From positions 1 to 46,161 of the forward strand of contig CAWDOY010000030.1 in NCBI GenBank assembly GCA_963803975.1: a stretch of 46,161 nucleotides of DNA. Reading direction: 5' to 3'. The stretch is from an uncultured delta proteobacterium (GTDB lineage: Bacteria; Desulfobacterota; WTBG01; CAIYCZ01). Each line of letters opens with the position of its first letter. Position 1 is the first letter of the stretch. Both the position numbers and the translations under genes were made by a program. The notes beneath the pieces are model-generated. The model searched no databases and had not been told where the DNA came from. It was given only the letters and a program-made list of their open reading frames with translations. Of the stretch, positions 2,382 through 41,044 are shown piece after piece.

Positions 2382-2431
2382 CGAACACCTCCTATGCAGA
2401 AATACATTATAATTTATTACGTAAAATATTC

Positions 2432-11911: not shown

Positions 11912-13475
11912 ATGGTTGCGCAGGCTGAAGCAAAAAAAGACGTGAAAAAATTTGCAGGCATAGAAATCCCGCCGGATCTCACCAAGGGAAATTTTTTCTT
12001 TCTTTATTTCAACACATTGATCATGGGCATGATAATGGCAGTCCCTGCCGTTATTCAGCCGGCATTTCTGACTGATATTATTAAGATTGACCAGGCCTTC
12101 GCCGGCTCTATAAACGGCCTCTTACAGAATATGAGCCAGATTGCCACCCTTTTGTTTGTCGCAATGATCGGGGTGCTGTCAGACAAAGTCGGCAGAAAGA
12201 TACTGGCAGTTGCGGGATTTATCGTGGGCGCAGTGTTCTTCTATTTGATGAGCCAGTCAAACGGTATTGCTTCAGGGTTGAATATTCCCGCGGGGCTTGC
12301 TTCACCGATTTGCGCGGTGCTCAGCTTCTTTCCCAGCAGGGCTGCTGAGTTTGACGCTTTTTCACCCGGCCTGCTCATGACCTATATCACCCGTTTTATC
12401 ATCGGGGTCGGCACTCATCCTTGCGTATCCCCAGTTTATCACCATGGTGGCTGACTATACCTATGAGAAGGACCGCGGCAAGGGCATGGCAATGAATGGC
12501 ATCGCGATGGGCATTGCCTCGCTGCTGGTCTTCGGCGCGTTTGCTCCCATCATGAAAAAGTCAGGCGTTATAAGCCTCATATATATTATTTGCGTACTTG
12601 CTGTGATTGGGGCGGTAAGCACCTGGGTGTTTCTCAAAGACCGTATGCCTGAAGTGAAACAGAAGAAGACCGGGCTCAAGGAAATAATTCCGATAGTTAG
12701 AAAAAGCCTGCCGCTCAAGGCAAGTTACCTGTGTGCCCTGATAACAAGAGCCGATATTGTAGTGCTCAGCGCACTTCTCGTGACCTGGGGTGTTAAATAC
12801 GGCCAGCAGATTCAGATGGCTTCAAAAGATGCAACCATGAAGGCATCCATTCCCATGATCGTCATGGGTGTATTTTCACTCCTCGCATTTCCTGTAATCG
12901 GCATCTTGATTGACAAATGGGGCCGGGTACAGACGATTATTTTAGCCCTTTTTGCCGGGGGCATAGGAATGGTGGTTCTTGCTGTGTGCCCGAACCCGTT
13001 CAGCGGACTGGTGTACGTGGGGGTTATTCTTGCCGCATTTGGTTTTGCCGGCTCAATAGCCGGTGCTAATACTCTGGCAGCAGATGCTTCTCCTCCCGGC
13101 ATGATTGGCGGCATCTTCGGCGGACTTAACACCATGCAGCCCATCGGGGTTCTGTTCTTCCTGGGACTTGGCGGATATTTATTTGATGCGCTGGGAGCGG
13201 GCTGGGCATTTGCTCTAAAGGGTGCAGGAACCCTTATTCTTGCCATATGGGTTTTTATGGTTAAGGGTGACATAGCAGCCGCATCTGAAGAAGCAGCCGC
13301 AAGTATTACCTTCACCATGAAGTGGACTGATGGCGCGAAGAAGATGCTGGAAAAGGTGCCGACAGCATTCCGGCAGCCGGCGGTTGAGGGCACCGAGCAG
13401 TATGCAAAGGATCACAATAATGCCGAGGTTACTGAAGATGTCATGACCGCATTCAGAAAAGAGCTGGGGATGTAA
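11912..13475 (+). CDS. MFS transporter with C-terminal PCP_red-like domain, frameshift near 12413
   Basis: MFS motif A (GVLSDKVGRK; GILIDKWGR) split over ORFs 11912..12454 and 12444..13475; tail MKWTDGAKKMLEKVPTAFRQPAVEGTEQYAKDHNNAEVTEDVM. Confidence 0.85.
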
Positions 13476-20905: not shown

Positions 20906-22857
20906 TTGAAAAAATTACTTTTGACAACAGTGTGCGGGCCCTTTGGAGTAAATACAGACGACTGTACCGAGCATGTAATGCCTGAGCTTTTCCATGCCCA
21001 GGTTACACGGTCCCAGGGAATTTTCAGCATTCAGGTCAACCTATGTATCATACGGGCTGGAATATATTGCCAAGAACATAAAAACGCCCACGACCGTCCT
21101 CCAGTATCCCACCATGAAGCAGTTTATCAGTGAGGTAAAAAAAGGCTATGATTATGTCGGGATCAGCTTTGTTATTGCAACGTTTGAAAAGGTTAAAAAA
21201 ATGGTCAGGGCAGTGCGGGAAGCTGCTCCCCAGGCAAAAATAGTTTTGGGCGGATACGGGACCGTGCTTCCTGAGTGCGAAGCATACGGTGACTATATCT
21301 GTCGTGAAGAAGGCGTGGCGTTTATGCAGCGGCTTCTGCAGGAAACACCCGATGATATACCGCCGAGCCATGTGGTGTATGCTACCTCGGGAAAAATACT
21401 GGGGTTCCCGGCCATGAAGGGCGCAGTGGTGCTGGCAGGGCTCGGCTGTCCGCACGGGTGTGAATTCTGCGCCACATCGCATTACCACGGCAGGAAGCAC
21501 ATTCCTCTGCTCAAGACCGGTGAGGACATCTACCGGGAAATCAGGCGGGTGCACAAGACCCTGGGCAGTACCAAGCTTCCGATTGGTATTATCGAGGAAG
21601 ATTTCCTTATGCAGAAGCAGCGGGCGCAGGAGTATCTTGATTGTGTTCTGCAGGACCAGGGAGAACCCATACATATCTCCTGCTTTGCCAGCGCCTACTC
21701 CATATCCCAGTGGGACCCCGAGGACCTGGTCAGGATGGGGATTCAATCAATATGGGTGGGGGTGGAATCAAAAGAGGCGCCCTATGCTAAATTAAAAGGG
21801 TTTGATGTAAAAAAGATTTTTGATACCCTCCATGCGCATGGTATCAACACCCTGGCCTCGCTTATCCTGGGCCATGACTTTCATACCGAGGAAAAGGTGT
21901 GGCAGGATTTTGAATACCTCATGTCAATGCGGCCGACGCTGAGCCAGTTCCTTATCCTCGGCCCGACCTGCAACACCCCGCTGTTTGAACGGCTGCAAAA
22001 AGAGGGGCGGCTCCTGGATGTCCCCTATCGTCACTACGACGGTTTTCACCTTATGTTTCAGCACCCCAACATCAGCAAGGAGAAGATGGAGGAGCTGATA
22101 CTTGCTGTCTATGAAGAAGAGTTCAAGCGGCTCGGGCCTTCGGCAGTGCGCTTTGTGGAACGGCAGCTGCAGGGCTATGTCCGGTTCAAGGATTCGTCTG
22201 ATACGCTCCTCAGGAAGCGGGCAGAGCAGTTCCGGCAGGGCTGTCTTGAAGCGCTGCCGCTGTTTTCTACTGCGGTCCGCTATGCTCCGACACCAAGAGG
22301 TGGCAGAAAAGGTACGGGAGCTGCAGCAGGCAGTAATCCAGCAGGTAGGCACCGGCGACTTTATGAATAAGCTAAAGACCATGATAGTACCGGCACTGGC
22401 TTTTGTGGCACAACTCCGAATCAGGTCTGGTGACTATCACCAGCCTACCCTGGGCAGAACCGAGTACCGGATGTCGAAACACGCCCTTATCCCCGGCGTT
22501 CTGCAGGGAAAGGGTGTCTTGAAAATAGATTTGCGGCCCCGGGCTGCAGAACATCAGCCGCTGGTCCTGGACCTGCACGGTGTTTTTGACCGGACAACAG
22601 CAGCCAAATTACGGAAACGGATTGAGAGCTATCTGGAAAAGAACCGGGGCATTCTGGCGATTAACTTCAGCGGGCTGACCAGCATCGAGCGGGAAGCTTT
22701 GCTCAGGTTCTTTAAAAAGCTGCGGGCGTATAATGAACGAATCAAGCTGGTGCGCATCGACAGTCTGAAGACCGAGTGGAGCGATATTGTCAATTATGCA
22801 AAAAGTTATTTTGAGGTTTTAAGCGCTGAAGAGGTTCTGGCCATCGGTGTTGCATAA
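20906..22857 (+). CDS. B12-binding-like radical SAM protein with C-terminal STAS-like domain, frameshifts near 21030 and 22297
   Basis: TTG start behind AAGGAG; YDYVGISF..KIVLGGYG; GCPHGCEFC; WVGVES; tail LVLDLHGVFD...AINFSGLTSIE. Confidence 0.82.
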
Positions 22858-22964: not shown

Positions 22965-23366
22965 TTACGTATACTTTTGAACAACTTTCAGCAGCTCATC
23001 AAAATTAACCGGCTTGGTGAGGAAATCTTCAACGCCGGGCAGAAAGCTTTCTTCCATATCAAGGGAAAAGCGCGAGTTGGTCACCTGATTGATGGCGGTG
23101 AGCATTATAATCGGGATATTCTTATAGTCTCTATACTTGGATGTGGGCCGGTTGCTTCGTATCTGGTTGGCAACCTCAAACCCTTCCGTATCACTGTCCA
23201 TCATGATATCAAGGATAATGAGATCAGGCTTTTCCTCTGCCAGTTTTTTCAGGCACTGTGACCCGTTGTATGCTTCTGCTATATCATAGCCCTTGCTTTT
23301 GAGGACATGTGCCAGGCTGTTGACCTGATCCTGATCATCATCGACGATTAAGATTTTTTTGGCCAT
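22965..23366 (-). CDS. Single-domain response regulator (receiver)
   Basis: KILIVDDD, PDLIILDIMM, IPIIMLTA, FLTKP. Confidence 0.93.
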   Translation of the reverse strand: MAKKILIVDDDQDQVNSLAHVLKSKGYDIAEAYNGSQCLKKLAEEKPDLIILDIMMDSDTEGFEVANQIRSNRPTSKYRDYKNIPIIMLTAINQVTNSRFSLDMEESFLPGVEDFLTKPVNFDELLKVVQKYT

Positions 23367-23519: not shown

Positions 23520-24053
23520 CTATTTGTCATCAAGTAGTTTATATACAACGTTTCTCTCTTCCCAGGCTTTTTTCCGCTCGTACATGTCAATGGGGAATTC
23601 CATCTGCTTCAGCTCCACCGGGGCGGACTTTTTATCAACCAGGCCAAGAGCCAGTGCCACGCCGTAAATTATGGCTTCAGGCCGGGGCGGGCAGCCGGGA
23701 ACGAAATAATTAACCGGCACCGCTTTCTCTGCGCCGCCGAGTACATTGTAGCAGTCAAACCACATATTGCCGCCGATGGTGCAGGAGCCGATGCCGAAAA
23801 CAAGTTTCGGCTCAGGCATTGCCGCGTACGCGCGCTTGACCAGGGGCAGTGTCGGCCGGGTAACGGCGCCGGAAATAAGCATCACATCGCCGTGCCGGGG
23901 CGAGGTAACCAGCTTTATGCCGAAGCGCTCGACATCATAGAAGGGCGTGAGCACGTTCAAAATTTCAATGTCGCAGCCGTTACACGCGCCGGAATTGCAA
24001 TGGTATACCCACAGGGATTTGGGAAACATTTTTTTAGCGAGGTTTGATAACAT
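23520..24053 (-). CDS. Group 4 [NiFe]-hydrogenase small subunit (HycG/EchC/NuoB-like)
   Basis: ACNGCDIE, SPRHGD, GSC, PGCPPRPEAI. Confidence 0.93.
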   Translation of the reverse strand: MLSNLAKKMFPKSLWVYHCNSGACNGCDIEILNVLTPFYDVERFGIKLVTSPRHGDVMLISGAVTRPTLPLVKRAYAAMPEPKLVFGIGSCTIGGNMWFDCYNVLGGAEKAVPVNYFVPGCPPRPEAIIYGVALALGLVDKKSAPVELKQMEFPIDMYERKKAWEERNVVYKLLDDK

Positions 24054-24065
24054 CTGCTACTCTCC

Positions 24066-24602
24066 TCATTTCTCAGGGCGTTTGTGTTTTTCAGTCTTTT
24101 CCAGCAGTGCCGTGTCAAGGTGCTCCGTGCTGACGGGAATAAAGGCGCGCATTTCCAGGTTGTCGTAGCGGTACCCTTTCATGCTCATTCTGTCTATGGC
24201 ATTGGTTGTTTCATGCTCATAGCACCTGCCGCAGCGCTTGCAGGTGGCCATAAACAGCTCCATGCTCTGGGTGATGTCGCGCTTGTTCTCGGTTGCAAGC
24301 TCGAAATTATCGGTCATGGTGATGGCATCCTCGGGGCAGACATCAGCGCATCTGCCGCAGTAGGTGCAGCGCCCTCCATCGTAGAGCATCAGCCGTATTT
24401 CCTGGCAGATATCGCGCACCATGATGGTGCGTGCCGGACAGTGGACTGCACAGCCGCCGCAGCCGATGCACTTGTGATGATCCCAGGAGGGCTGGCCCCG
24501 GAAATCGGGCGGTACGGGATGCGGCTCGAATGGATACTTCAAGGTTACCACGCCAGGCGTTAATGCCATCATGACCTGCTTGATTTTACTTGTCAGCCAC
24601 AC
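24066..24602 (-). CDS. 2x[4Fe-4S] subunit (HycF/NuoI-like) with extra CxxC
   Basis: TLKYPFE..FRG.P; CIGCGGCAVHCP; CTYCGRCADVCP; CKRC. Confidence 0.92.
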   Translation of the reverse strand: MWLTSKIKQVMMALTPGVVTLKYPFEPHPVPPDFRGQPSWDHHKCIGCGGCAVHCPARTIMVRDICQEIRLMLYDGGRCTYCGRCADVCPEDAITMTDNFELATENKRDITQSMELFMATCKRCGRCYEHETTNAIDRMSMKGYRYDNLEMRAFIPVSTEHLDTALLEKTEKHKRPEK

Positions 24603-24654
24603 AATGATTCTCCTTAAAGTTAAATCCTGAACAGTCTCTTTAGAATTGTAGCGC

Positions 24655-26328
24655 TCAGTATCTTTTTAACGACAGCGTTTCCAGTTCGGACCTGGAAAGC
24701 ACTGTTACGCCGCCATTCTTTATATCAACAACCTGAACCCGCTCGGTACAGGAAAAGCACGGGTCAATGCTGCCGATAATAATGGGCGCGTCGGCCAGTT
24801 CATTGTTCAGGAGCATGAGCGGCACGCCCTGCAGGTTTGGGTACGTCGGAGCCCGCACCCTCCAGCGCTCAGGACGGTTATCCTCTCCGGTTATCATATA
24901 ATGCACCACTTCACCGCGCGGCGCTTCGACGCCGGCTATGGAATGCTTGAGGGGCGCGACGGGCTCATTGAGTTCGGTGAGAATGGGGCCGTCGTCAGGC
25001 ATCTTATCAAGCGCCTGGCGGATAATATTTATTGCTTCAAAGGTCTCAAGCACCCGCACCAGGACTGTTCCCCAGACATCGCAGGTATCAACCACGGGAA
25101 CGCTGAACTTCATATCATCATAGGCTGCATAGGGATGGTCGCGCCGCGCGTCAATATCTACGCCGCGCGCCCGGGCCACCGGCCCCACCAGGCTCCATTT
25201 GATGGTATCTTCTTTTGTGATATAGCCCACATTTTTAGTTCTTTTGTGGATGGAGGTGTCGCCGATAATGGCATTCTTGATGACCACCAGCTCCTCTTCA
25301 ATCTTTTTCATGACATTGAGGATGTCCTGACTGATTTCCGGGGTGATGTCCCGGCGCACGCCGCCGACCACAATCATGCCGTAGGTTTTGCGGTTTCCGG
25401 TCATCCGTTCGCCCAGCCACATTACCGGCTCTCTGACGCGCCAGGAGTGCATGAAGATGGTGTTGTAGCCGATCAGATGGCCTGCCACACCGAGCCAGAG
25501 CAGGTGGGAGTGGACGCGCTCTATTTCAAGCATGATGGTCCTGATGTATTCCGCCCTGCGGGATATCTTGATGTTGCCCGCAGTTTCAACTGACTGTGCG
25601 TATGAAGTGGCATGCACTGAGCCGCAGATGCCGCAGATGCGTTCCGCCACAAAGGGTATCTCATTGTAGGTAAGCTGGGTCTGGCACAGCTTTTCAATGC
25701 CGCGATGAATCATGAAGCCGCGATAATCACAGCCTTTAATAGTTTCGCCGTCGACAAAAAGGGCAAAATGGGCTGGCTCGTGGAGGGTTGGATGGTACGG
25801 CCCCACCGGCACCACCGTGCACCCGTCAGGGCATTCATCAAGCTGGTAGGCAACACCTTCTGCAGAGGGCGGCTGAATGTTCCAGGGCACTGTTTTCCGC
25901 AGCGGATACAGCCCCTCAGGCCAGTCATCTGAGAGTATCAGGCGCTTTGGCTTGGGATGGCCGGTAAACTTCATGCCCAGATGATCCGCAAACTCCCGCT
26001 CGGACCACCCGGCGTTGGGAATATCAGGAGTTATTGAGTCCATCTCCGGGTTGCCTTCCGGAACAGAGGTTCTCACGCCGCAATAGACATTGTCCCGGTC
26101 AAAGCCGAACGCATGTACCATGCCGAGCGTTTTATCCCGTTCTATATTATCGTAGCCGGTGCTGACCAGATATCTGCCGCCGAGTGCGATCAGCTCATTG
26201 CAGATATCACGCACCTTTTCCTTTTTTATGTCAAAGAAAAGCTGGGTCGCGCAGGTCTGATCAACACCAATGAGCGCATCCTTGAACTTGTTTGAAATCC
26301 GGTTTTTTATCTCTTCAATTTGTGGCAT
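24655..26328 (-). CDS. Group 4 [NiFe]-hydrogenase large subunit (HycE-like NuoC-D fusion)
   Basis: WSERE..GHPKPKRL..DWP; HRGIEK; L1 ERICGICG; L2 DPCFSCTER plus a C-terminal extension. Confidence 0.96.
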   Translation of the reverse strand: MPQIEEIKNRISNKFKDALIGVDQTCATQLFFDIKKEKVRDICNELIALGGRYLVSTGYDNIERDKTLGMVHAFGFDRDNVYCGVRTSVPEGNPEMDSITPDIPNAGWSEREFADHLGMKFTGHPKPKRLILSDDWPEGLYPLRKTVPWNIQPPSAEGVAYQLDECPDGCTVVPVGPYHPTLHEPAHFALFVDGETIKGCDYRGFMIHRGIEKLCQTQLTYNEIPFVAERICGICGSVHATSYAQSVETAGNIKISRRAEYIRTIMLEIERVHSHLLWLGVAGHLIGYNTIFMHSWRVREPVMWLGERMTGNRKTYGMIVVGGVRRDITPEISQDILNVMKKIEEELVVIKNAIIGDTSIHKRTKNVGYITKEDTIKWSLVGPVARARGVDIDARRDHPYAAYDDMKFSVPVVDTCDVWGTVLVRVLETFEAINIIRQALDKMPDDGPILTELNEPVAPLKHSIAGVEAPRGEVVHYMITGEDNRPERWRVRAPTYPNLQGVPLMLLNNELADAPIIIGSIDPCFSCTERVQVVDIKNGGVTVLSRSELETLSLKRY

Positions 26329-26428
26329 ATAAAAACCTCATTAAGGATAGACAAGCAGAATACAGAAAACAGACAACAGATGCATATGCCATCCATTGGC
26401 CTGGCTTTTGTCATCTTACATCTTGCAG

Positions 26429-26935
26429 TTACTGTTTATATACATATTCCTTATTATTGCTGCTTATAATTTCAACAATAATATCCTTTAGCAGATCGGC
26501 ACTCTGTTTCACGTCCTCTGAAAGACCCTGTCCAAAGTCGGTATCTCCTGCTTCAACTCCCAGCAAATAGGTTTTTTTTCCGCTTTCCTCAAGAATTTTT
26601 CCGCACAGGGTTAAGGAGAGCTGGTGTGTCGAATAGCCATTGAGCGCCTCACCGCAGTTAGTAAGCCGGCCAAAGATTATGGATCCGGGAGAGGTGGTGG
26701 ACTTAACCGCGTCGATGATCAGGACGTTTTCGCAGTCAAGCTCGGCAATTTTAAATACATAGCTTTCAATAATATCTTCCACATTCAAGAGCAGCACCTG
26801 GTCGGAACTCACTTTGCTTTGCAGTTCGTCAACCAGGTAGAGCCCGACCGCGTCATCCTTGCGCAGATAGTTCCCCATCCCCACGATGCAGGTCTTTTCC
26901 TTCACCACACCCATGATATCGGTGACCAGGCTCAT
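26429..26935 (-). CDS. hycI: Hydrogenase maturation protease (HycI-like)
   Basis: GMGNYLRKDDAVG, IIDAV, STHQLSL. Confidence 0.9.
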   Translation of the reverse strand: MSLVTDIMGVVKEKTCIVGMGNYLRKDDAVGLYLVDELQSKVSSDQVLLLNVEDIIESYVFKIAELDCENVLIIDAVKSTTSPGSIIFGRLTNCGEALNGYSTHQLSLTLCGKILEESGKKTYLLGVEAGDTDFGQGLSEDVKQSADLLKDIIVEIISSNNKEYVYKQ

Positions 26936-27771
26936 CAGATCTGCTCTCCGAGGGTTTTAATCTGCCGGAAGGTGTACACCGGGCCATCAGTGCAGACCAG
27001 GGTTCTGCCGATGGCGCAGTGCTGGCACTTGCCCACGCCGCACTTCATGTGCCGCTCAAGGGTTGAGATGATGCAGTCATCCCGCAGGCCGCGCTTCAGC
27101 AGCTCGCCAATCACCGTATTGAACATGACCGGCGGCCCGCACACAAAGGCCACGGTATTTTCCACGGGCAGATTTGCCTTGTCAAACAGGGTGTGGACAA
27201 AGCCGACTTCTCCGGTCCATCCGGGAGTGCCCACATCAACCGTGATATAGGTCTCAAAGCCGGGAAACGACTGCCACTCTTTCAGGTTTTCCTTGTACAT
27301 CAGGTCATCGGGCGTGCGCGCCCCGTGCAGCACCAGCACCCTGCCGAATTCCTTTTTATGCTGCAGGACGTGGACTATGGAAGACCGCAGCGGAATCAGG
27401 CCGATGCCGCCCGCGACATAGATAATATTTTTCCCCTTGATCTCTTCAAACGGAAACCCGTTGCCAAACGGCCCCCGGATCCCCACCTTGTCGCCGGCTT
27501 TCAGCTCGTGCAGGGCATTGGTGACTGATCCCACTTTTCTTACCGTGAGATGGAAGCGGTCATTCTCCGGGCTGGGAGGCAGCGAAACAGCAAACTCTCC
27601 GGCCCCGAATATGGTACACATAATGAACTGACCGGACTTTATCTTGAAGTTCTTATCCAGTTCCTTATTATCCAGGGACATATAGAATGTTTTTACGTCC
27701 CGAATCTCGTCCCTTATATCTTCAATGGTTGCCGTCTCGGGGATGGTTACTATTTTTGTACCGTTATTCAT
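26935..27771 (-). CDS. FAD/NAD(P)-binding [2Fe-2S] subunit (AsrB / sulfhydrogenase gamma-like)
   Basis: GQF, RGPFGNGF, VAGGIGLIPLRS, VCGPPVM, ERHMKCGVGKCQHC..VCTDGPV. Confidence 0.92.
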   Translation of the reverse strand: MNNGTKIVTIPETATIEDIRDEIRDVKTFYMSLDNKELDKNFKIKSGQFIMCTIFGAGEFAVSLPPSPENDRFHLTVRKVGSVTNALHELKAGDKVGIRGPFGNGFPFEEIKGKNIIYVAGGIGLIPLRSSIVHVLQHKKEFGRVLVLHGARTPDDLMYKENLKEWQSFPGFETYITVDVGTPGWTGEVGFVHTLFDKANLPVENTVAFVCGPPVMFNTVIGELLKRGLRDDCIISTLERHMKCGVGKCQHCAIGRTLVCTDGPVYTFRQIKTLGEQI

Positions 27772-28835
27772 AGCTGGTCCCTACTTGTGGTTTCGCGTCG
27801 TATGTATTTGACAACGTTGGGCATGCCGATATCACCGGGGCACACCCAGTCGCAGCGGCCGCAGCCGACACAGCCCGGCCGCAGATATTTTTTACTCTGG
27901 GAATAGGAAAGCTTGCAGAAAAAGCGCTTGTTGCGCCGGTCTTCAACGGGTTTGCGCGGGTTGTGGCCGCCGGCCATGCGGGAGTAGCCCTCGTAGGAAC
28001 AGGAGTCCCAGGTGCGCAGGCGGTCGCAGGAACAGTCTCCCGTAGCAGTATCGACCACATTAAAGCACGAGCATGAAGGGCAGACAAAGGAGCAGGCGCC
28101 GCACTCAAAGCACTGGTCACCGACATATTCCCACACTTCTTCCTTGGCAAAGCCGGTTGTGATGCGGTTCATTACCCGCGATACCCAGGCCTTGGATTCA
28201 GTGGAAAATGACTCAAAGAGTGTTATTGATTTATCAACCAGGCGGTTTTTTTCCGCGAGATCCTTATCGGCTGCTTTCCCGAGCTGCAGTTTTTCACAGA
28301 GCGCTTTTCCTTTGGCGCTTCCCGCTTCAATCAGGAAGTTGTCGCCGATGTCGGTCAGATTAAGGTCATAGCCTTCCTCAGCCGCAGGGCCGCTGTCAGT
28401 GCAGACACAGAAACAGTATTTAAACGGTGCCACGCAGGTGTTGGTGACAATGAACATTTTTTTACGGAGGCTGCGGTAGACTTCATCGACAAACTCCTGG
28501 CCGAGAAAGAACCGGTCAAGGCACTGCAGGCCGGTTAAATCACAGGAGCGCAGGCCGAACAGGGCCTTGGGGGTCTCCTTGAAATCCGGTTTCATCTCAA
28601 CCGGTGCATTCCCGCCGGCGTAGCGGTAGGAGAGTATGCGATCAGCCTGGGGAAACACGATATGTTTAGGCGGGGCAGCAGGTATCGGTGCGGAAAGGTT
28701 GATCTCGCTTACATCGTCAACCTTTTCAAAGAAGGTCTGCCCTGATCCCGGTTCTATTACCGGGCCATATACCTGATACTCGGTGCTCAACGCTTTTGCA
28801 ATCTGCAGGATGTCATTTTTTTTAATGAGATACAT
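27768..28835 (-). CDS. [4Fe-4S] subunit (AsrA / sulfhydrogenase beta-like)
   Basis: FGLRSCD, C...CFC, CFECGACSFVCPSCSCF, RTWDSC, CVGCGRCDWVCP; GTGA/ATGA-type overlap with the next gene. Confidence 0.92.
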   Translation of the reverse strand: MYLIKKNDILQIAKALSTEYQVYGPVIEPGSGQTFFEKVDDVSEINLSAPIPAAPPKHIVFPQADRILSYRYAGGNAPVEMKPDFKETPKALFGLRSCDLTGLQCLDRFFLGQEFVDEVYRSLRKKMFIVTNTCVAPFKYCFCVCTDSGPAAEEGYDLNLTDIGDNFLIEAGSAKGKALCEKLQLGKAADKDLAEKNRLVDKSITLFESFSTESKAWVSRVMNRITTGFAKEEVWEYVGDQCFECGACSFVCPSCSCFNVVDTATGDCSCDRLRTWDSCSYEGYSRMAGGHNPRKPVEDRRNKRFFCKLSYSQSKKYLRPGCVGCGRCDWVCPGDIGMPNVVKYIRRETTSRDQL

Positions 28836-28837
28836 GG

Positions 28838-30847
28838 CTATACCTTCTCAATTCTTATGGGGATGGTTGCGTCCTCACCCTGTTTTAAAATCTCCGGGTG
28901 CCCGGTCAGCGCCTTGGCGATGATATCCCGGGCAAAGTACGGTACATAGGCAGCATGCGACTTCACGTCATCTGATATTTTAACCGCCAGCAGCATCTCG
29001 CCGTAGGGCGACACCACTTTCACCTGCCACTGGTTTCTGACCTGCAGGGCTTTGGCAGTATCAGGTCCAATTTCCACATAGCCCTCGGGGTAATCAAGCA
29101 GGGTTGCGTTATATTCTCTCATGGGGATAAAGGTTTTTCTCATCAGATTGTTCTGATGCCAGAAATCCTGGGCTTTGCCTATCATGAGCAGATACGGAAA
29201 GTCTTTTCCCGCAGCGGGCCCAGCAAACGCGCCGGATACTTTTGCAAAACTGATGGAGGAGCCGGCGGCTTTAATGTCCAGGCGCCGCGTACCGTCAGGA
29301 TTTTTTTCATCACAGGGCCACTGCACCCCGCCGAAGGTCGCGGCCAGTTTTTTATGGGAAAGCTTCGCGTACGTCGGGGTCAGCCGGGCAATCTCATCCA
29401 TTACCTCTGCCGGCCCTGCATAGCTCCACTTTGCCCCGGCTTTTTCTGCTATGCGGCTAAAAAGCTTCCATCCCGGTAGCACATTGTGCTGAGGCTCAAG
29501 TTTCTTTGGTGACAGCTGGACGCGGCGGTCGGTGTTGGTGAAGGTGCCGTCCTCTGCAATATAGCGGGCAACGGGAAGCACCATATGGGCATAATCCATG
29601 AATTTATTCTTGTAGGTGCTGATGTAGGCTATGAAATCAACCTTCTGCAGCGCCGCGGCATCGCGTATCAGGCCCTCGTCGTGATCAATCACTACCAGCG
29701 CCTTCAACTGCCCCGGCGATTCTGCCAGCAGCTCTGATACTGATCTGCCCGGCGTGATGTTGAGCTCAACGCCCCAGGCAGCGTTGAATTTTTTAACTGC
29801 AGCCTGATCCGAGAGCGACTGAAAACCGCTGAGCAGGTCCGGAGCGCACCCCATGTCATAGCCGCCCTGAAGGTTATTGATGCCGGTAATCGGGTTGACG
29901 CCGCAGCCCTCTTTGCCGATTTTACCGGTCATGGCAAAGAGGTTGAAAATATAGCTGATGGTGTCCTCATCAAGGCCTGATATGCCTGAGGAGAAAAATG
30001 CCATTGCGGTTTTTGCCTGAGAAAGAGCTTTTGCCACCTGCTTGAACTCTTCGATGCTGATTCCGGTCTTGGCCGTGATCTCCTGCTCGGAGAGCTGTGC
30101 CAGGGAGGCGGAAAATTCCTCAAACCCTTTGGTGCTGCTGCGGACAAAGTCTGAATCGATGAGTCCGTCCTGGACGACGCATTTGGCAATTCCTGCCACC
30201 GCCAGTTTCAGCGCGCCGGGTGTTATCTGCAGGAAGCTGTTGCTGAGCTTTGCAATCTGGGTGCGCCTGCTGTCAATGGTTACTATTTTTGCTCCTGCCT
30301 GGGCTGCCAGGTGAATCTCGCTGCCGACAATGGGGTTCTGTTTGGTGATGTCGCTTCCTGCAACCAGCAGGAACTCTGCCTTGCAGATTTCTTCCAGTGA
30401 TCCGGTCATGCCTGCCATGCCGGTTCCCCGGGACAGGACATTGAGGCATCCTCTATGGCCGGCATCAGAGGAAAGGCTTACGTTATTGGTTTTAAAGACA
30501 GCCCGGGCCAGCTTCATCAGCAGAAACTGCTCTTCGTTGGTGGACCGGGGTGAGGCAAGAAACCCGACGGCAGCCGGCGGGAGGGCTTTTAATGTATCAA
30601 CCAGCAGTGCTATTGCTTCTTCATAGGAAGCATCAGCAAACTGGCCGTTCTTTTTTATCAGGGGGCGGTTGATGGTCTGGGCGGTATTGAGCAGCTCGTG
30701 TATGTTCCAGCCTCTGACGCACAGCCTTCCCTTGCTCACCGGATGGTTCTGCGAAGGAAAGACGCGTTCGACCGCAGTGCCGGTAACTTGCATAAAGTGA
30801 CCACAGCCGGTTCCACAAAACGTACAAACGCCAGGTTGTTGCTTCAT
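28838..30847 (-). CDS. FdhF-like molybdopterin-oxidoreductase-family protein lacking FDH catalytic residues
   Basis: CTFCGTGC..LCVRG, STNEE.FL..KLAR, GTFTNTDRRVQ, QWPC; active-site loop reads NNVSLSSDAGH; ITGINNLQG replaces LRGQNNVQG. Confidence 0.88.
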   Translation of the reverse strand: MKQQPGVCTFCGTGCGHFMQVTGTAVERVFPSQNHPVSKGRLCVRGWNIHELLNTAQTINRPLIKKNGQFADASYEEAIALLVDTLKALPPAAVGFLASPRSTNEEQFLLMKLARAVFKTNNVSLSSDAGHRGCLNVLSRGTGMAGMTGSLEEICKAEFLLVAGSDITKQNPIVGSEIHLAAQAGAKIVTIDSRRTQIAKLSNSFLQITPGALKLAVAGIAKCVVQDGLIDSDFVRSSTKGFEEFSASLAQLSEQEITAKTGISIEEFKQVAKALSQAKTAMAFFSSGISGLDEDTISYIFNLFAMTGKIGKEGCGVNPITGINNLQGGYDMGCAPDLLSGFQSLSDQAAVKKFNAAWGVELNITPGRSVSELLAESPGQLKALVVIDHDEGLIRDAAALQKVDFIAYISTYKNKFMDYAHMVLPVARYIAEDGTFTNTDRRVQLSPKKLEPQHNVLPGWKLFSRIAEKAGAKWSYAGPAEVMDEIARLTPTYAKLSHKKLAATFGGVQWPCDEKNPDGTRRLDIKAAGSSISFAKVSGAFAGPAAGKDFPYLLMIGKAQDFWHQNNLMRKTFIPMREYNATLLDYPEGYVEIGPDTAKALQVRNQWQVKVVSPYGEMLLAVKISDDVKSHAAYVPYFARDIIAKALTGHPEILKQGEDATIPIRIEKV

Positions 30848-30892
30848 AGTGTAACTCCAGAATTTAAAATTACCCGTACGGTGTCGCTCTTT

Positions 30893-31819
30893 TTAGTATC
30901 CCCATACGGCCAGAATAAGAGCGCCGATTGACACGATAAACATGCCCGCAAAGTAGCGGATAGCCTGATCGATGCGGTAGCGCGGATGAATTGATGCAAC
31001 CAGCGTGATGATGAGAACCAGGACCAGGACTTTAACAAGAAAAATAATCACACTCACGGGGTAAAACAAGGTATTGCCCCACGGGACAAAGAGCGCTATG
31101 AAGATGCCGCTGTAGACCATCAGTTTTGCCATCTGCAGGTACTTGAACAGCGCAAGCTTTGGTCCCGAGTACTCAAGCAGCGGTCCTTCCATAATTTCGG
31201 TCTCAGCTTCGGTAATATCAAAGGGCAGCCGCCCCACAAAACCCTGCAATGAAAACAGCATCACCCCCAGCATGATGAGCCCGGACAGCGGCAGGCTATG
31301 GCCGTACACTGCGCCGTTCAGCACCGCGTCCAGCCTGAGCGAGCCGGCATTTATAGAGCTGATAACAAGGGCAACCGCCAGCAGCGGCTCCAGGGTCATC
31401 ATGGCCATCATTTCCCGGCTCATCCCGACCAGGGAGTAGAGGGAACCGGCAGCAAGCCCGGCAAACAGCGTTGCAATGCCGCACAGGGTCAGAAGATAAA
31501 TGAGCAGTATGCTGTCGCCGGCAGCGTTCATGGGAACGCTCGATCCCATGGGCACCAGGGTTGCGACGGTCAGAATAGATGCCAAAGAAAGATAGGCGGC
31601 AAAGCGCTGCATGCCGGCATTTTCGCCTACTTCAATATCTTCCTTGCCGAGCAGTTTCAGCAGGTCAAAGTAGGGCTGCAGCACCGGCGGCCCTTTCCGC
31701 GACTGCACCTGAGCGGTAATCTTGCGCAATAGACCTTCAAAAAACGGCGCTCCCAGGAGTACCAGCGCCACATTGAATGTTCCGTATATGATCATCAAGC
31801 CTGCTTTTGGTTCCATCAT
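30893..31819 (-). CDS. HycD/NuoH-like membrane subunit
   Basis: RKITAQVQSRKGPP.LQPYFDLLKL..KE; RLPFDITEAETEIMEGPLLEYSG; PRYRIDQ. Confidence 0.94.
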   Translation of the reverse strand: MMEPKAGLMIIYGTFNVALVLLGAPFFEGLLRKITAQVQSRKGPPVLQPYFDLLKLLGKEDIEVGENAGMQRFAAYLSLASILTVATLVPMGSSVPMNAAGDSILLIYLLTLCGIATLFAGLAAGSLYSLVGMSREMMAMMTLEPLLAVALVISSINAGSLRLDAVLNGAVYGHSLPLSGLIMLGVMLFSLQGFVGRLPFDITEAETEIMEGPLLEYSGPKLALFKYLQMAKLMVYSGIFIALFVPWGNTLFYPVSVIIFLVKVLVLVLIITLVASIHPRYRIDQAIRYFAGMFIVSIGALILAVWGY

Positions 31820-31873
31820 GTATATCCCTTTTTTATAAATACGCTGATCTCTAAAATCTATTCCCGCATACCT

Positions 31874-33776
31874 CTACATATGCGGTTTTGGTTTTCCACC
31901 AACCCAGCGAATATACCGCTTCACCCCGGCATACAGATGATGCGCGCCGTAGCGGTGCTGCTCCGCATCCTGCGCATAGCCGCACAACCAGGGCTCATCT
32001 GCCCTCTTCCTGGAACCGCCAAGCCGGGTAATAATGAATGCGATAATGAGCATGATGCCCAGGACCATGATGAGCACCAGCGGATCAAACAGGGCACTGC
32101 CGTCAGCGCTGGCAATTCCGGCAAGGCCATCAAGCCGGGCAAGCGGCATTTTTGCAAGACTCGCTCCCAATCCCTGCTGGCTTCCGTGCAGGGCCTGCGC
32201 TATGAGCTGATAGGCACCGATGGGGATAATGCCAAACACCAGGCACAGGGCTGCAAGTATCAGCTGGGGAATCTGCATCATCCAGCCCACTTCCAAAAGC
32301 GGCTTGCGCGCAGCTTTCTCAGCCACGAGGGAACTTGTTCTTGACAGGAAGCTCACGCCAAAAAATTTCATAAACGAAGCAAGGGTTATGGCGCTGGTCA
32401 GAATGGCAAACACGGCACATATTCCCAGATACTTGGCAACGCTTGAGCCAAGTATGGTTGAAACATAGATGCTCCATTTGCTGGCGAACCCGTTAAACAG
32501 CGGCACTCCGGCAATAGAAAAGGATGCAATTAAGGTCATAATGGCGGTCACCGGCATAAACTTGATAAGGCCGCCCATCTTGTTGAGATCCTGGGTATCA
32601 GTAGCATACAGCATGGACCCGGCATTGAAGAACAACAGGCTTTTAAAGGTGCCATGGTTGATAGTGTGAAACAAAGCGCCATAGAAGCCGATTGCTGCAA
32701 GCCCGAGCACGGTTTCGTTTTGCAGGCCCGGGCGAATCAGGGCCACGCAGGCACCGAGTCCGAGGAGAATGTATCCCACCTGTCCGATGCTGTGAAAGGC
32801 AAGAAGACGTTTGGATTGTTCCTGTTTGAGTGCTTGCAGGGTACCAATGAAGAGGGTAATCGTCCCCAGAGCAGCTATAAGCAGCCCCCATCCAGCGCTT
32901 GGATAGGATTCTATGGCCTGCTCCGGCACCAGCCACAGAAATGAGCGCATCAGCCCGTACACGCCGGTTTTAATCATAACTCCTGACAGGAGCGCGCTTA
33001 CCGGTGAGGGTGCTGCGGGATGGGCGGCAGGAAGCCACATCTGTCCGAACGGCCACATACCGGCCTTGATGCCAAAGCCAATTAAATAGAGAAGAAAAGC
33101 AACTATCACCACTCCGCTGCCGCTCTGCAGCAAGCCCGGCAGTCCATGACTGATAGCTTCAAAGTCATATTTCGTGAGGGTCTCAGACCCTACGGTTGAC
33201 CGGTCCCTGGGCGAGCAGTGCCGAAGCAGCCATGATCAGGACACAGGCGATCTGCATCATGAGCAGGTATTTATTTGCCGCCCGGACATTTTCCCGCTTT
33301 TTGTATTCATAGCGAACCAGCGCATAGGAGGTAAGTGTCATGAGCTGCCAGAAAATGAAAAAGAAGAGCATCATGTCGCTTACGCATACAATCCCGTACA
33401 TGCCGGCTACAAAAAGGAGAAAGTACGGATAGTATCTCGCAACGCCGTAATCTTTATAATGCTCCATGTAGCTGATGGAAAAGAAGGCGGAAAGAACCGC
33501 GATGGTTGCTATAAGCCCGATAAATATGGCGCTCAAGCCATCGATGTAGATGCGCAGGGAGGAGCCCAGCTGCGGCAATTCCATGATGGTTATTGCTTCT
33601 CCCGGCCCTGACAGAAGCACGGTGCCTGCAGCGGTGATGGCAAGGAAACTGGATAGCGCTGTGGCCAGAAAGCAGAGCCACCCTGCTACAGCTTTGTTTT
33701 TTGATAACAGCAGCGTTACTATTGCGCCGCCTGCACACACTACAAGAGCGTAGATTATTGCATAGGCTGGAGTCAT
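31874..33776 (-). CDS. HycC/HyfB-like antiporter-type membrane subunit, frameshift near 33190
   Basis: N-part (IDGLSAIF, FFIFWQLMTLTSY) plus C-part (KAGMWP..WLPAAHPAAPSPVSALLSGVMIKTG, KRLLAFHS, HTINHGTFKSLLF, GVPLFNGFASKW). Confidence 0.9.
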
Positions 33777-33951: not shown

Positions 33952-34383
33952 TCAGCCGATATACAATAAATACCGGGACCATTACGAGCGCTGCCGCGAA
34001 GCGCTAACACCTCCGGGTTTTAATTCAACTAACTGAATAAACATGCTTATTTCATATTGCTTTGATTCGTTTGGCGGGTTAATAATGAAGTCGATTGTGC
34101 AGGGTCAGGGATACGTTCATTGGTGGTAAATCGCCTTTGAGCGCTATCTGCAGGCTATATACTATTGACAAAATGACATGGTGCTCAGCAGGAAAAACTC
34201 TGAAAAGCAATTGGTTTAAAAATTAAACTATTTGATTTTACTTATATTTAATTTTTTAATTGGTGCCTGTCAAAATGACAGCTATCATTACATCATTATG
34301 AACGTATAAAACGTGAAATTTTAAAATAAAAGGCAGATGCTGAAATTTAAAATTCAGCCCCGGAAGGAGAATATAAGCCATAC

Positions 34384-35544
34384 ATGGAAACGCTTCGCAT
34401 TTTAGTGGTCGAGGATGAATATGGTATGCGCCTGGCAATTGCCCGGGCTTTGCGGGATTACACGATCCATCTTCCCGAGATAGAAGGAAAAATTGGATTT
34501 ACTATCGAGCAGGTTGAGGTTGCAGAAGAGGCGCTCACTATCATTAACGACAAGCCGCCGGATATTATCCTGCTGGATTATAAACTGCCCGGCATGAGCG
34601 GCCTTGACCTGCTTACCCAGGTATCAGCAAAGCAGCTTGACCTGCTGGCTATCATGATCACGGCGTATGCATCTATCGAGACTGCTGTTACGGCCACCAA
34701 ACAGGGCGCCTTTGATTTCCTTGCCAAGCCGTTTACGCCCATGGAATTAAAAGAAACTATTTATAAGGCCGTAAAACATCTGGTTCTGATGAGACAGGCC
34801 CATAAACTGACGGAAGAAAAGCGCAAGGTTCGTTTTCAGTTTATTTCAGTGCTGGCGCATGAGATGAAGGCCCCGCTGGCAGCACTCGACGGGTACTTGA
34901 ACATTCTTCGAGAGCGTGCAGCAGGAGACAGTCAGGAAGTATATGATCATATGCTTGACCGGTGCCTGACGCGCATCCAGGGCATGCGCAAGATGATTAT
35001 AGATCTGCTTGATTTGACGCGCATTGAGTCAGGAGAGCGGAAACGCGATGTAAGCGAAGTTGACGTGCGGGAAATCGTTCATACCGCAATTGATACGGCG
35101 ACCCCTGAAGCACAGGAGCGGTCCATTAGCATTAGCTTCCCTGAAAATGGACCCGTGCTCATGCAGGCCGATCGCAGCGAGCTGGAGATTGTTTTTAATA
35201 ATCTCATAACCAATGCGGTGAAGTACAACCGGGACGGCGGGCGGGTCGATGTTGAACTGCATGCCGACGGCGGTCAGGTCAGCATTGTGGTGACTGATAC
35301 CGGTATCGGCATGAGCACGGAAGAAGCAGCGCGGCTGTTCAGCGATTTTGTGCGCATCAAAAATGAAAAGACCAGAAACATTCTGGGCAGCGGGCTGGGA
35401 TTGTCTACCGTAAAGAAGATAGCGCTGCTGTATGGCGGTGAGGTAAGCGTAGAGAGCGAGCCTGATAAGGGAAGCAGGTTTACCGTCACGCTGAATCAGG
35501 ATGCAGCGGTTAGCGCATCAGCCCCCGAACCGGCTAATCAGTGA
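34384..35544 (+). CDS. Hybrid receiver-histidine kinase (REC-HisKA-HATPase)
   Basis: ILVVEDE, LLDYKLP, FLAKP; LAHEMKAPL; NLITNAVKY, DTGIGM, GSGLGL, GSRF. Confidence 0.95.
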   Translation: METLRILVVEDEYGMRLAIARALRDYTIHLPEIEGKIGFTIEQVEVAEEALTIINDKPPDIILLDYKLPGMSGLDLLTQVSAKQLDLLAIMITAYASIETAVTATKQGAFDFLAKPFTPMELKETIYKAVKHLVLMRQAHKLTEEKRKVRFQFISVLAHEMKAPLAALDGYLNILRERAAGDSQEVYDHMLDRCLTRIQGMRKMIIDLLDLTRIESGERKRDVSEVDVREIVHTAIDTATPEAQERSISISFPENGPVLMQADRSELEIVFNNLITNAVKYNRDGGRVDVELHADGGQVSIVVTDTGIGMSTEEAARLFSDFVRIKNEKTRNILGSGLGLSTVKKIALLYGGEVSVESEPDKGSRFTVTLNQDAAVSASAPEPANQ

Positions 35545-35571
35545 GCAGGGGCTGCGCGCGGTCGCCCAACC

Positions 35572-36336
35572 TTACGGCTTGCAGGTTTTACACACCTCAA
35601 GCTCTGCGCGCGGTATATTAAATTTTTCAGCTATATAATCTATCTGCACCTGCGGCATAAACGGCTTGCCGCAGGTTTTGCATTCAGCCATGCGGAAGGT
35701 CTGTTTCCAGTTGTGCATGATCCGCTGACTTCCCATGGCATAGCCTCCGCCCGGGGAATGATACTGCGCATTCTGCACATCTTCCATGGTAATGATGCCG
35801 GTAGGACAGATGTACACACATGAGCCGCAGCCGATGCACTGTTTGGCGGGGTCAAAAAAAGGCGGCGCAACTTCCCGGCTAACCCCGCGGCTGGCAAATC
35901 CTATGGCCTCCACCCCCACCACTTCCCGACACACGCGCACACACTGGCCGCAGAGAATGCAGAAGTTATTGCCGGTTTTAAAGCGCGGTTCCTGTATATC
36001 ATATTCCTGCGCAAGCTCTTTGACGATTTTTACATTCGGGCACCGGGCAAGCAGAAGCTCAAGCACCAGCTTTCTCACCGCGCGAACCCGATCACTCGTG
36101 GTCCGCACTGCCATGCCGCTGTCAGCCGGATAATTGCAGGACGTGACGATGCGGGTCCTGTTTCCCCGTTGCACTTCAACAACACAGAGCCGGCACGCGC
36201 CATAGGGCTGCAGTGCTTCATGGTGGCACAGGGTTGGTATATCAATATCCATTTCCCGGGCAATTTGTAATACGGTTGTGCCTGGCCGGGCCTCTGCCTC
36301 TTTTCCGTCAATCGTGAAGGTCATCTTTTTATCCAT
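35572..36336 (-). CDS. NuoG/HoxU N-terminal-like Fe-S protein
   Basis: IPTLCHH..GACRLCVVE..TSC [2Fe-2S]; CILCGQCVRVC; CIGCGSCVYICP; C-terminal CKTC...CKTC. Confidence 0.9.
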   Translation of the reverse strand: MDKKMTFTIDGKEAEARPGTTVLQIAREMDIDIPTLCHHEALQPYGACRLCVVEVQRGNRTRIVTSCNYPADSGMAVRTTSDRVRAVRKLVLELLLARCPNVKIVKELAQEYDIQEPRFKTGNNFCILCGQCVRVCREVVGVEAIGFASRGVSREVAPPFFDPAKQCIGCGSCVYICPTGIITMEDVQNAQYHSPGGGYAMGSQRIMHNWKQTFRMAECKTCGKPFMPQVQIDYIAEKFNIPRAELEVCKTCKP

Positions 36337-37099: not shown

Positions 37100-37253
37100 C
37101 AGGTTGTTGAAAAAGCAGTTTTCTCCCAGGCTGATCAAAAACATCCGGATGCAAGGCGCGCGAAATCAAGAGGAATGAGGCGTACGTTACCGTACGTCGC
37201 AATGACGAAGGATGAGCGCAACGAAGCAGATGGGTGTTTTTCAACAGCCTGCT
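37099..37253 (-). mobile_element. MITE-like element, copy 2
   Basis: Terminal inverted repeats CAGGTTGTTGAAAAA / TTTTTCAACAGCCTG; matches 18503..18660. Confidence 0.85.
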
Positions 37254-37379
37254 ATACATGAAACTGCCCGGAGGCGCACTAACACAAGGATTCAATTGAC
37301 ATTGCCGCTGATACCTGTTACTAAAATTTTTTAATCTGATTCAGTATTTATAGCAAAGATAGCAAAGGAGAACGGTAAC

Positions 37380-38340
37380 GTGAAGATTCTTATCACGGGC
37401 GGAGCCGGCTTTATTGGTTCGCACCTTGCAGAAGCGCTGTTGGCATGCGGCGAAGAGGTTTTTATAATTGATGACCTTTCTACCGGGAGCATTGATAATA
37501 TTATTCACTTGAAGGACAATCCACGCTTCCACTACACCATAGACACCATTAAAGAATCAGCCGCTGATGGCGGAGCTGGTAGACCGGTGTGATCTCATTT
37601 TCCACCTGGCAGCTGCCGTCGGGGTAAAGCTGATCGTTGAATCGCCGGTTAATACTATTGAAACCAATATTTACGGCACCGAGGTTGTGCTGCAGCTGGC
37701 AAATAAAAAGAAGAAAAAGGTTATTATTACGTCCACCTCGGAAGTCTATGGAAAAAGCGACGCCATACCGTTTCAGGAAGATGCCGATATGGTGCTGGGG
37801 CCTACCACCAAGGGGCGCTGGAGTTATGCCTGCTCCAAAGCGATTGATGAATTTCTGGCCCTGGCCTATTATAAAGAAAAGAAGCTGCCGGTGGTGATTG
37901 TGCGCCTGTTTAACACGGTTGGCCCGCGCCAGACCGGCCGCTATGGCATGGTTGTTCCCACCTTTGTGCAGCAGGCGCTCCTGAATCACCCCATAACCAT
38001 TTATGGTGATGGCAGGCAGAGCCGCAGCTTCAGCCATGTACGTGATGTGGTGCGCGGCCTTACGGGGCTCTCCCGGCATCCCGATGCCGTTGGTCAGGTC
38101 TTTAATATTGGCAACAATAAAGAGATAAGCATTGAAGCGCTGGCGCAGCTCATAAAGAAAAAGACCGGCAGCTCGTCTGAATTTATTTATATCCCCTATG
38201 ACCAGGCGTATGAGGAAGGTTTCGAAGATATGCCGCGCCGCGTTCCTGATATCACCAAAATCAACCGCCTGATCGGTTTTCAGCCTGAAGTGGGGATCGA
38301 CGAGATCATCGATTCGGTCATTGACTATTATAAGCAATGA
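37380..38340 (+). CDS. NAD-dependent nucleotide-sugar epimerase/dehydratase, frameshift near 37555
   Basis: [52 protein letters not shown]. Confidence 0.9.
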
Positions 38341-40342: not shown

Positions 40343-41044
40343 AAAATTATTGCATAACTCCATGAACCCCTATTGCTTGAAGTACATTCTGTGGTCAATA
40401 AACAATTAAAGTAACCGTGCATACAGGGCGAAACATACAGACTGCGGCACAAATAAGCTTGCAATAAAAAAGAAAAAATGCTTTAAAACCTTGTAACCAT
40501 ACCTTCCCAACGGTGTTTAACTGTATAAAATTACCGCACATGGTGTATTATTTTAATTACCTCAGGTTAAACAGAGGGTTGCAGCAGCACAAAAAAGATA
40601 AGAGATTTCAAGAGAAAACAAAATTCTTACAGTGGGGTATAAAATTTGCAAACTTATGCAACAATTTTTAACGGGATAGTAAAAAAATTACTTGACAAGT
40701 AATGAAATTCTTATGTATTTAAGGTAGCGGAAAAAAATATACATAGATTTTTGCGGCAAAAAAGAGTGTTTTATTAATTGAAAACCTTAAACAAAACTAT
40801 AAACAAAACTTAAAAATCAGGAGGGTGAGACAAAACAAAAAAACTAGGGTGACGGACTTATTAGAAAACTTTGAAAAAAGAAGAGATAATAATAAGATAA
40901 AATTTAAAGAGAGGGAGGTGATGCAGTAAAAGGTATTTTCCTAACAACCTCTCCATGAAGGAGAGTAAAAATAAACAGGAAAGTCTTTTAATTGTCAGTA
41001 ATATTTTTTCAAGTTTTAACTGTTAACCAAATCGAAAGGAGTGA

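Follow-up and report, generated by a model that had tools for sequence, protein, structure and literature searches.

A 46,161-nt stretch of DNA from an uncultured delta proteobacterium (contig CAWDOY010000030.1 of assembly GCA_963803975.1; hereafter the window), part of a 4.25-Mb genome that is 98% complete, carries nine co-oriented genes at positions 23520-33776 that form a real and intact operon conserved across phyla. The large and small subunits, the four Ni-binding cysteines, and the NuoH- and antiporter-type membrane subunits mark the predicted product as a group 4 [NiFe]-hydrogenase in the broad sense, and the same operon encodes AsrA- and AsrB-like proteins and an FdhF-like protein with a formate dehydrogenase (FDH) fold. 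The reading that we favor, with confidence that is about even, is a membrane-anchored group 4 NADH/H2 oxidoreductase in which a dead FDH would serve as adaptor and in which ion pumping is doubtful. NADH would be re-oxidized by H2 production in a reversible manner: it would bind AsrB (FAD, [2Fe-2S]), and electrons would then pass through the AsrA clusters, possibly by way of the FdhF-like cluster and an extra cysteine site of HycF, to HycF, HycG, and the NiFe site of HycE. Retention of the dead FdhF would be explained by two roles, one in the folding of its partner AsrA and one as the adaptor that links to HycF in place of HycB, while HycD and HycC would anchor the enzyme and deliver protons, likely with no ion pumping by the canonical antiporter mechanism. 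A receiver protein encoded next to these genes may tune the complex or its expression.

Operon content and conservation

The open reading frame (ORF) listing and family scans bore out the initial annotation of nine co-oriented genes, all on the minus strand, in the order HycC/HyfB, HycD, FdhF-like, AsrA-like, AsrB-like, protease, HycE, HycF, and HycG. A tenth gene, encoding a single-domain response-regulator receiver directly after hycG (22965-23366, minus strand), had been missed. The membrane arm consists of a HycC/HyfB-like single antiporter-like subunit (31874-33776), assigned by family scans, and a HycD/NuoH-like anchor (30893-31819; PF00146). The FdhF-like, AsrA, AsrB, and protease genes abut or overlap as first described, with a 2-nt gap between FdhF-like and AsrA, a 4-nt overlap between AsrA and AsrB, and a 1-nt overlap between AsrB and the protease. 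A single surplus base near position 33196 breaks hycC/hyfB into ORFs 33183-33776 and 31874-33133. That base is missing from a 98.9%-identical contig (L016), whose hycC encodes an intact protein of 633 aa, and from the contigs of runs X1, X2, and X18, and the break is therefore an assembly error; a hycC pseudogene was rejected on the same grounds.

The HycE-like large subunit (24655-26328; PF00346/PF00329/PF00374), in which NuoC and NuoD are fused, has both Ni-binding motifs intact, in agreement with the initial annotation. The ligands C232 and C235 (L1, C232-G-I-C235) and C524 and C527 (L2, C524-F-S-C527), as well as E184 and R471, are kept in 28/28 distinct HycE sequences. The nearest solved chain is E. 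coli HycE (E 1e-121, 41.8% identity), ahead of MbhL (5e-75). The cluster ligands C24, C27, C91, and C121 of the HycG/NuoB-like small subunit (23520-24053; PF01058) are kept in 24/24. Processing of the HycE tail by the HycI protease underlies maturation of the NiFe enzyme. As HycE has a C-terminal tail beyond the L2 motif and the operon carries a gene for a HycI-type maturation protease (26429-26935; PF01750), a matured NiFe enzyme is expected; hypD is also found in the genome.

We tallied 63 related loci, made up of four from a first set of five (leaving out an ordinary FDH locus, L005), a further 57, and L080 and L082; some of these are near-copies, so the counts do not represent independent events. 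The full set of nine genes is present in 28 of the 63; contig ends cut off the remaining 35, whose genes agree with the same content. This conservation excludes a chance association of the genes. The order FdhF-AsrA-AsrB-protease-HycC-E-D-F-G is found in 25/28 complete loci and the order of the window in the remaining 3/28, and the block FdhF-AsrA-AsrB-protease is never rearranged among the tallied loci. The largest intergenic gap in the 28 complete loci is 174 bp, which leaves no space for HycB or extra membrane subunits. As the initial annotation stated, the operon contains neither HycB (AsrA against E. coli HycB gave a best blastp E of 0.28) nor AsrC, for which the best match in the whole genome reached 59.9 bits against a cut-off of 324. 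The genome likewise has no match to DsrA/dsrA.

An ortholog of the FdhF-like protein is present in 4/4 genomes of the window's family and absent from the 37 remaining relatives at that level, and it occurs in 2/301 genomes sampled across the phylum. In the spirochaete order that contains L004, the gene (scored alone) was found in 66/95 genomes, with one copy in each. The source names of homologs include Spirochaetota, Aminicenantes/Acidobacteriota, Oligoflexia, and Ca. Saccharicenans, and those of a sister clade include Omnitrophica, Verrucomicrobiota, Acidobacteriia, and Chitinivibrionales. No cultured carrier is among the homolog source names listed, which are of the metagenome-assembled genome type.

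The FdhF-like subunit, the AsrA/AsrB module, and HycF

The 669-aa FdhF-like protein (28838-30847, minus strand; PF00384/PF04879/PF01568) scores 443 bits against TIGR01591, below the cut-off of 666. Aligned against E. coli FdhF, it has Gly130 (codon 30458-30460) in place of Sec140, Thr321 in place of Arg333, and Arg45 in place of Lys44, and it retains the [4Fe-4S] ligands C8, C11, C15, and C43. Of 428 homologs at E<=1e-100, the best 120 were surveyed: all 120 lack Cys or Sec at the Mo-ligand site (Gly in 117, Ala in 2, Ser in 1), and all 120 lack Arg333. His131 (E. coli His141) is kept in 116/120, and the cluster cysteines in 110/110 of those with an intact N-terminus. Further changes are GEDP402-405 to DHDE, QD428-429 to IS, D478 to G, N662 to K, and K679 to A, at positions that we take to be contacts of the bis-molybdopterin guanine dinucleotide cofactor (bis-MGD) in E. 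coli FdhF. The predicted structure keeps the full FdhF fold, with a predicted local distance difference test (pLDDT) of 88.5 and template modeling (TM) scores of 0.87-0.90 to FDH and NapA. In the sister clade (~32% identity) the ligand is lacking in the best 120 matches as well (Tyr in 96, Phe in 14, His in 10) and the His is mostly lost; its single complete locus, L080, carries the same nine genes, and L079 ends at a contig edge. These results support the prediction that the FdhF-like subunit is a catalytically dead FDH. Annotation sources call it “formate dehydrogenase”, a label under which a lineage with the gene in 66/95 genomes would wrongly be credited with formate metabolism.

Two side observations concern this fold. 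A short insertion at about residues 574-587 (domain IV, 28838-29200) is nearly invariant in the Gly clade and missing from the live FDH of L111, and is a candidate partner-binding surface. Many other FdhF/NuoG-like proteins have no Cys or Sec ligand (P0126-P0269), including a 1405-aa tandem NuoG-like protein (P0131), and dead FDH folds appear to be common as judged from their ligand positions.

AsrA (27768-28835; PF17179) and AsrB (26935-27771; PF00175/PF10418), a Fe-S protein and a FAD-[2Fe-2S] pyridine-nucleotide subunit, are by sequence homologs of the sulfhydrogenase beta and gamma subunits. Their best matches in the Protein Data Bank (PDB) are the beta and gamma subunits of P. furiosus soluble hydrogenase I (SH1), with E 8e-43 and 2e-53, respectively, and AsrA also weakly matches the methanogen FDH beta chain 9t1s_M (E 3.5e-4). 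In AsrA, 17 Cys are conserved in at least 42/46 sequences. In AsrB, the GGIG loop and CGPP are present in 41/41 and G-x-R in 40/41, and the [2Fe-2S] motif is kept. Asp179 of AsrB is found in 41/41 with no Arg after it, in contrast to SH1 gamma, which uses NADPH and has Thr-Arg there. We take Asp179 to be positionally equivalent to D239 of cb5r. The NADH-using NqrF has Ser-Asp in the loop that matches the Asp179 region. Acid/hydroxyl swaps have been reported to switch the cofactor in this family, with an acidic residue selecting NADH, for example cb5r D239T and FNR S223D (PMC5817062). Because Asp179 lacks a following Arg, as in NqrF, and because of these swaps, we infer that NADH is the cofactor of AsrB.

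The likely origin of this module is suggested by 12 loci of the same phylum (L081 and L111-L121) that carry an intact FDH-AsrA-AsrB set with no hydrogenase gene within the 8-20 kb examined. They have a Cys or Sec ligand and two gene orders, and some are followed by a receiver of the same type and kinases; we regard them as putative NAD-linked FDHs. A FastTree phylogeny of 73 rows, unrooted and liable to join long branches, gives each of the two dead clades a support of 100 and the pair together 99; their closest live FDHs are of the FDH-AsrA-AsrB type. Most likely, the module arrived as a ready-made NAD-linked FDH-AsrA-AsrB unit whose formate site would have decayed afterwards, and the intact clusters without hydrogenase genes are its likely donor.

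HycF (24066-24602, minus strand) is a HycF/NuoI-like 2x[4Fe-4S] subunit with four extra cysteines, C66, C121, C124, and C127, that are invariant in 119/119 sequences. Its C-terminal half is family-specific, with invariant Cys and Arg residues. In E. coli formate hydrogenlyase (FHL), HycB passes electrons to HycF, FdhF contacts HycF, and HycF has a mononuclear site of the form CxxC-x34-CPxC (PMC9474812). The operon's HycF lacks the second CPxC pair of E. coli HycF and has invariant C66 and C127 instead. The CxxCxxC motif and the distal Cys are candidates for a third metal or Fe-S site that could shorten the gap left by HycB. A Foldseek search with the HycF model returned HycF/NuoI chains only.

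Ion coupling and alternative readings

The initial annotation described a minimal ion-translocating H2:NAD(P)+ oxidoreductase. A minimal group 4 hydrogenase with an AsrAB-like module stands, but the ion-translocating part is weakened by the antiporter-like subunit, in which the Glu of transmembrane helix 5 (TMH5) is replaced by Gln144 (codon 33345-33347) in 32/32 distinct sequences of both clades. Gln144 aligns with E. coli HycC E135, HyfB E142, and HyfD/HyfF E143, and the Glu is present in 5/5 solved subunits whose alignments were shown and in 5/5 paralogs from the same genome that cover the position. This bears directly on the alternative that keeps the most weight, which we nevertheless consider unlikely: a fully ion-coupled H2:NAD+ oxidoreductase, similar to complex I without quinone, in which H+ or Na+ inflow would drive NADH to H2 at high H2, by reverse electron transport, or the reverse reaction would pump an ion. 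The TMH5 Glu has been called strictly conserved, and the FHL structure is described with no clear P-side path in the same report (PMC9474812). A NuoL E144Q change was reported with lowered pumping (PMC4938563, citing earlier work). Moreover, the complete loci have a single antiporter-like subunit and no Mrp module, and the reaction from H2 to NAD+ is computed to yield only 18 kJ/mol at standard state. With this evidence, ion pumping is doubtful and less likely than first assumed.

We calculated that uncoupled H2 production from NADH stops at about 2-66 Pa H2, which fits fermenters that depend on H2 consumers, and that one inflowing H+ would lift this ceiling to 0.8-73 kPa, a point for full coupling. 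No match to Rnf or to a [FeFe]-hydrogenase was found in the genome, so an NADH sink is plausible; the lack of an Rnf match also counts for the fully coupled enzyme. The genome also holds a complex-I-like cluster (C14), Hdr clusters, Sec-FDH genes, and tRNA-Sec.

Several observations weigh against our favored reading. Some of them argue for full ion coupling. The antiporter residues K237 (TMH7), H252 and K269 (TMH8), H370, H374, and K378 (TMH11), and K433 (TMH12) are kept in at least 30/31 sequences, the TMH7 Lys being retained unlike in E. coli HycC, and E136, E144, D201, E204, E206, E208, E211, and E216 of HycD are conserved in 29/29; these axial Lys/His and acidic residues fit real ion coupling. 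Loss of the TMH5 Glu is also not decisive, since HycC E135A did not lower the H2 output of E. coli FHL (PMC9474812) and the equivalent change in MrpA, E113Q, still allowed Na+ extrusion in one study (PMC4938563). In addition, contig C39 carries a separate soluble group 3b-type hydrogenase cluster; its product could exchange NAD(P)H and H2 without coupling, and another uncoupled enzyme would seem superfluous. Other observations concern the adaptor role. Most of residues 120-154 in the AlphaFold2 model of HycF have pLDDT <50, leaving the extra Cys site without structural support. No modeled interface joins the module to the hydrogenase arm; the complex prediction of the FdhF-like protein with AsrA 190-350 and HycF 14-178 gave scores of 0.01 and 0.00 against a mark of 0.32, a verdict in neither direction, and was not used as evidence. 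Finally, of five carrier genomes checked, one (G412) lacks any further FdhF-family match at E<=1e-30, but live Sec-FDHs are encoded elsewhere in the other 4/5 and in the window's genome, and moaC is found in 82/95 genomes of the spirochaete order and in 62/66 carriers, so that a formate input encoded in trans is possible. Loss of molybdenum cofactor synthesis as a test of the dead FDH was uninformative, as moaC is present in those 62/66 carriers.

A more far-reaching interpretation, which we hold to be rather doubtful, is that the operon would represent an uncharacterized respiratory enzyme class. Its eight subunits would form an NADH:H+ oxidoreductase that arose separately from complex I, by the grafting of a whole FDH-AsrA-AsrB enzyme onto a Hyc-type hydrogenase and the inactivation of the grafted formate site. 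A new HycF Fe-S site would stand in for HycB, electrons of NADH would be driven uphill to H2 by the proton motive force through a single Glu-less antiporter subunit, and a dedicated receiver would act as the switch. If true, anaerobes that lack Rnf would have in it a direct route for reverse electron transport, and it would show in a natural setting whether coupling needs the TMH5 Glu.

Reduced ferredoxin makes ion pumping thermodynamically easy, and ferredoxin, alone or in confurcation with NADH, could be the donor at the FdhF-like/AsrA clusters with AsrB as a side branch. The authors of the Hun study proposed ferredoxin input via HunABC (10.1101/536078), and groups 4d, 4e, and 4g-4i of the HydDB table are ferredoxin-linked; in the available part of that table, none of the nine group 4 subgroups is defined as NAD(P)H-linked (PMC5037454). 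We nonetheless judge this improbable, as the pyridine-nucleotide site of AsrB is complete and the operon has no bifurcating flavoprotein of the HydB/NuoF, HdrA, Nfn, or Etf type.

Arsenite oxidase holds its pterin cofactor with no protein ligand, and the FdhF-like subunit might do the same, or act on another substrate, in a variant substrate hydrogenlyase. The whole fold and His131 are retained and most carriers have moaC, yet the residues taken to be bis-MGD contacts are changed too and the sister clade has Tyr, Phe, or His at the ligand site with the His mostly lost, making this very improbable. Least probable of all is a pair of separate, co-transcribed enzymes, in which dead FdhF, AsrA, and AsrB would form a soluble diaphorase and an Ech-like hydrogenase without HycB would be connected to it only by a soluble carrier. 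The three-gene module does exist alone with a live FDH, but here the protease gene is always joined to the module block, the module sits between membrane and hydrogenase genes in the window's order, and the family-specific half of HycF with its invariant Cys and Arg is as expected for a dedicated partner surface.

Known systems and genomic context

On its gene content, the operon appears to fit neither FHL, Hun, AsrABC, nor group 3b, and resembles each in part. With E. coli FHL-1 (FdhF-HycBCDEFG, group 4a; PDB 7z0s/7z0t; PMC9474812) it shares HycC, D, E, F, and G and HycI at 22-46% identity, the NuoC+D-fused large subunit, the minimal two-subunit membrane arm, and a subunit of FdhF fold. In contrast to FHL-1, its FdhF is predicted to be dead (Gly130, Thr321), the four-cluster linker HycB/HyfA is missing, AsrA and AsrB are added, and HycF has the quartet of C66 plus CxxCxxC rather than CxxC-x34-CPxC. 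At TMH5, TMH7, and TMH12, the antiporter has Gln/Lys/Lys where E. coli HycC has Glu/Leu/Glu. Compared with the ion-pumping subunits NuoL/M/N, MrpA/D, and MbhH, it keeps the axial Lys/His of TMH8, TMH11, and TMH12 but lacks the TMH5 Glu that pairs with the TMH7 Lys237. Among solved structures, AsrA and AsrB come closest to the beta and gamma subunits of the P. furiosus group 3b enzyme (PDB 9nez/9nf0), but the hydrogenase core of the operon is of group 4 and membrane-bound, group 3b alpha and delta genes are missing, and the AsrB loop looks to be of the NADH rather than the NADPH type. Unlike AsrABC, the operon has no siroheme subunit AsrC.

The initial annotation also suspected that similar clusters may already have been catalogued, and this is the case. 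The “enigmatic” hydrogenase of Saganbacteria RX5A/RX6A (PMC6349859) has the group 4 core, an unclassifiable one-cluster molybdopterin protein, and asrA/asrB-like genes, for which its authors already suggest a nuoE/nuoF-like role (Suppl. Note 5). That cluster, which was interpreted as Mbh-type, additionally encodes two Mrp antiporters, a CooF-like protein, and two further membrane subunits, for which the 28 complete loci have no space; RX5A is set apart here by its published description. The Hun supercomplex of Atribacteria and others (10.1101/536078) shares AsrA/B-like HunAB, with no AsrC, joined to a group 4 hydrogenase, and some copies carry a 4Fe-4S molybdopterin-domain protein. Hun is described with 16 subunits, HunC, a Mnh/Mrp module, group 4g assignment, an L2 motif CYCC, and the ferredoxin input mentioned above, whereas the operon has eight structural subunits, no HunC or Mnh/Mrp, and L2 CFSC in 28/28. 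Carriers of the nine-gene cluster may be included in Table S5 of the Hun paper. In line with the initial annotation, literature searches, with most subscription journals outside their coverage, found no biochemical characterization, and no description of this minimal nine-gene form was found in them. The Fhl of S. fumaroxidans was considered as a cultured counterpart, and no link is claimed, as the available text gives no subunit detail (PMC5947623).

The operon had further been proposed to use AsrAB and an inactive FdhF in the role that NuoEFG plays in complex I. The dead FdhF and the pyridine-nucleotide module hold up, but the parallel is one of analogy rather than homology, and assembly of the module on the arm is a prediction. 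Both systems combine pyridine-nucleotide input with a dead FDH-fold domain that keeps one cluster (N7 in complex I; PMC9474812). In comparison, the operon has no NuoE or NuoF homologs and no NuoG N-terminal Fe-S domain, and its acceptor would be H+ at the NiFe site; the recruitment would be an independent one. If NADH input is true, the complex would be the smallest known machine leading from NADH to a membrane hydrogenase, and within the complex I superfamily its FdhF-like subunit would be a second dead FDH fold that independently came to serve as scaffold. With the TMH5 Glu invariably lost, the family offers a natural variant for asking whether minimal group 4 hydrogenases are coupled to ion transport, and by what means.

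The receiver gene follows hycG in 25/28 complete loci, and its phosphorylation residues D53, T90, and K118 are kept in 22/22. A paralog with 48% identity follows the group 3b genes, so the receiver may be a general regulator of redox enzymes. RNA-library contigs from two studies, which can give neither level nor strand, cover operon genes in close relatives, a weak hint that the operon is expressed there; a lack of contig cover over 33984-34254 is likewise only a weak hint. A scan for promoter-type motifs gave 15 matches versus 10.5±3.1 in shuffled sequences, and one for terminator-type motifs 21 versus 12.2±3.3, in both cases nearly all within genes, so that neither was informative.

Upstream of the operon, 34384-36336 holds a receiver/His-kinase hybrid (plus strand) and an orphan HoxU/NuoG-N-terminal-like Fe-S gene (minus strand), which are also present in L003, L016, L017, and L020; at least six further paralogs of the orphan gene are found in the genome. 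Elsewhere in the genome, a second, Ech-like group 4 operon (L074; G000:C48:40000-58000) is followed by an aldehyde:ferredoxin oxidoreductase gene, and its antiporter keeps the TMH5 Glu. A Flx-Hdr-like cluster (L075; G000:C48:84000-100000) comprises HdrB/HdrA-like genes and then AsrA/AsrB-like and aldehyde:ferredoxin oxidoreductase genes.

Frameshift-like breaks also occur in other genes of the window, namely an epimerase (37335-38340), a radical SAM protein (20994-22857), an MFS transporter (11912-13475), and a large surface protein (41020-44834). The epimerase break, an extra base near 37550, is not present in contigs of four runs, X1, X2, and X18 among them, and is like the hycC break an assembly error; single-base errors are therefore likely genome-wide. 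Between about 37095 and 37256, summed contig depth is 258-1770 in four runs, compared with ~10 in the flanks, with many loose ends at 37249-37256; this looks like a short repeated or mobile element in multiple copies. Lastly, the region 257-3574 encodes cytochrome bd oxidase subunits and a di-haem cytochrome c peroxidase, genes suggesting that this anaerobe may be exposed to oxygen.

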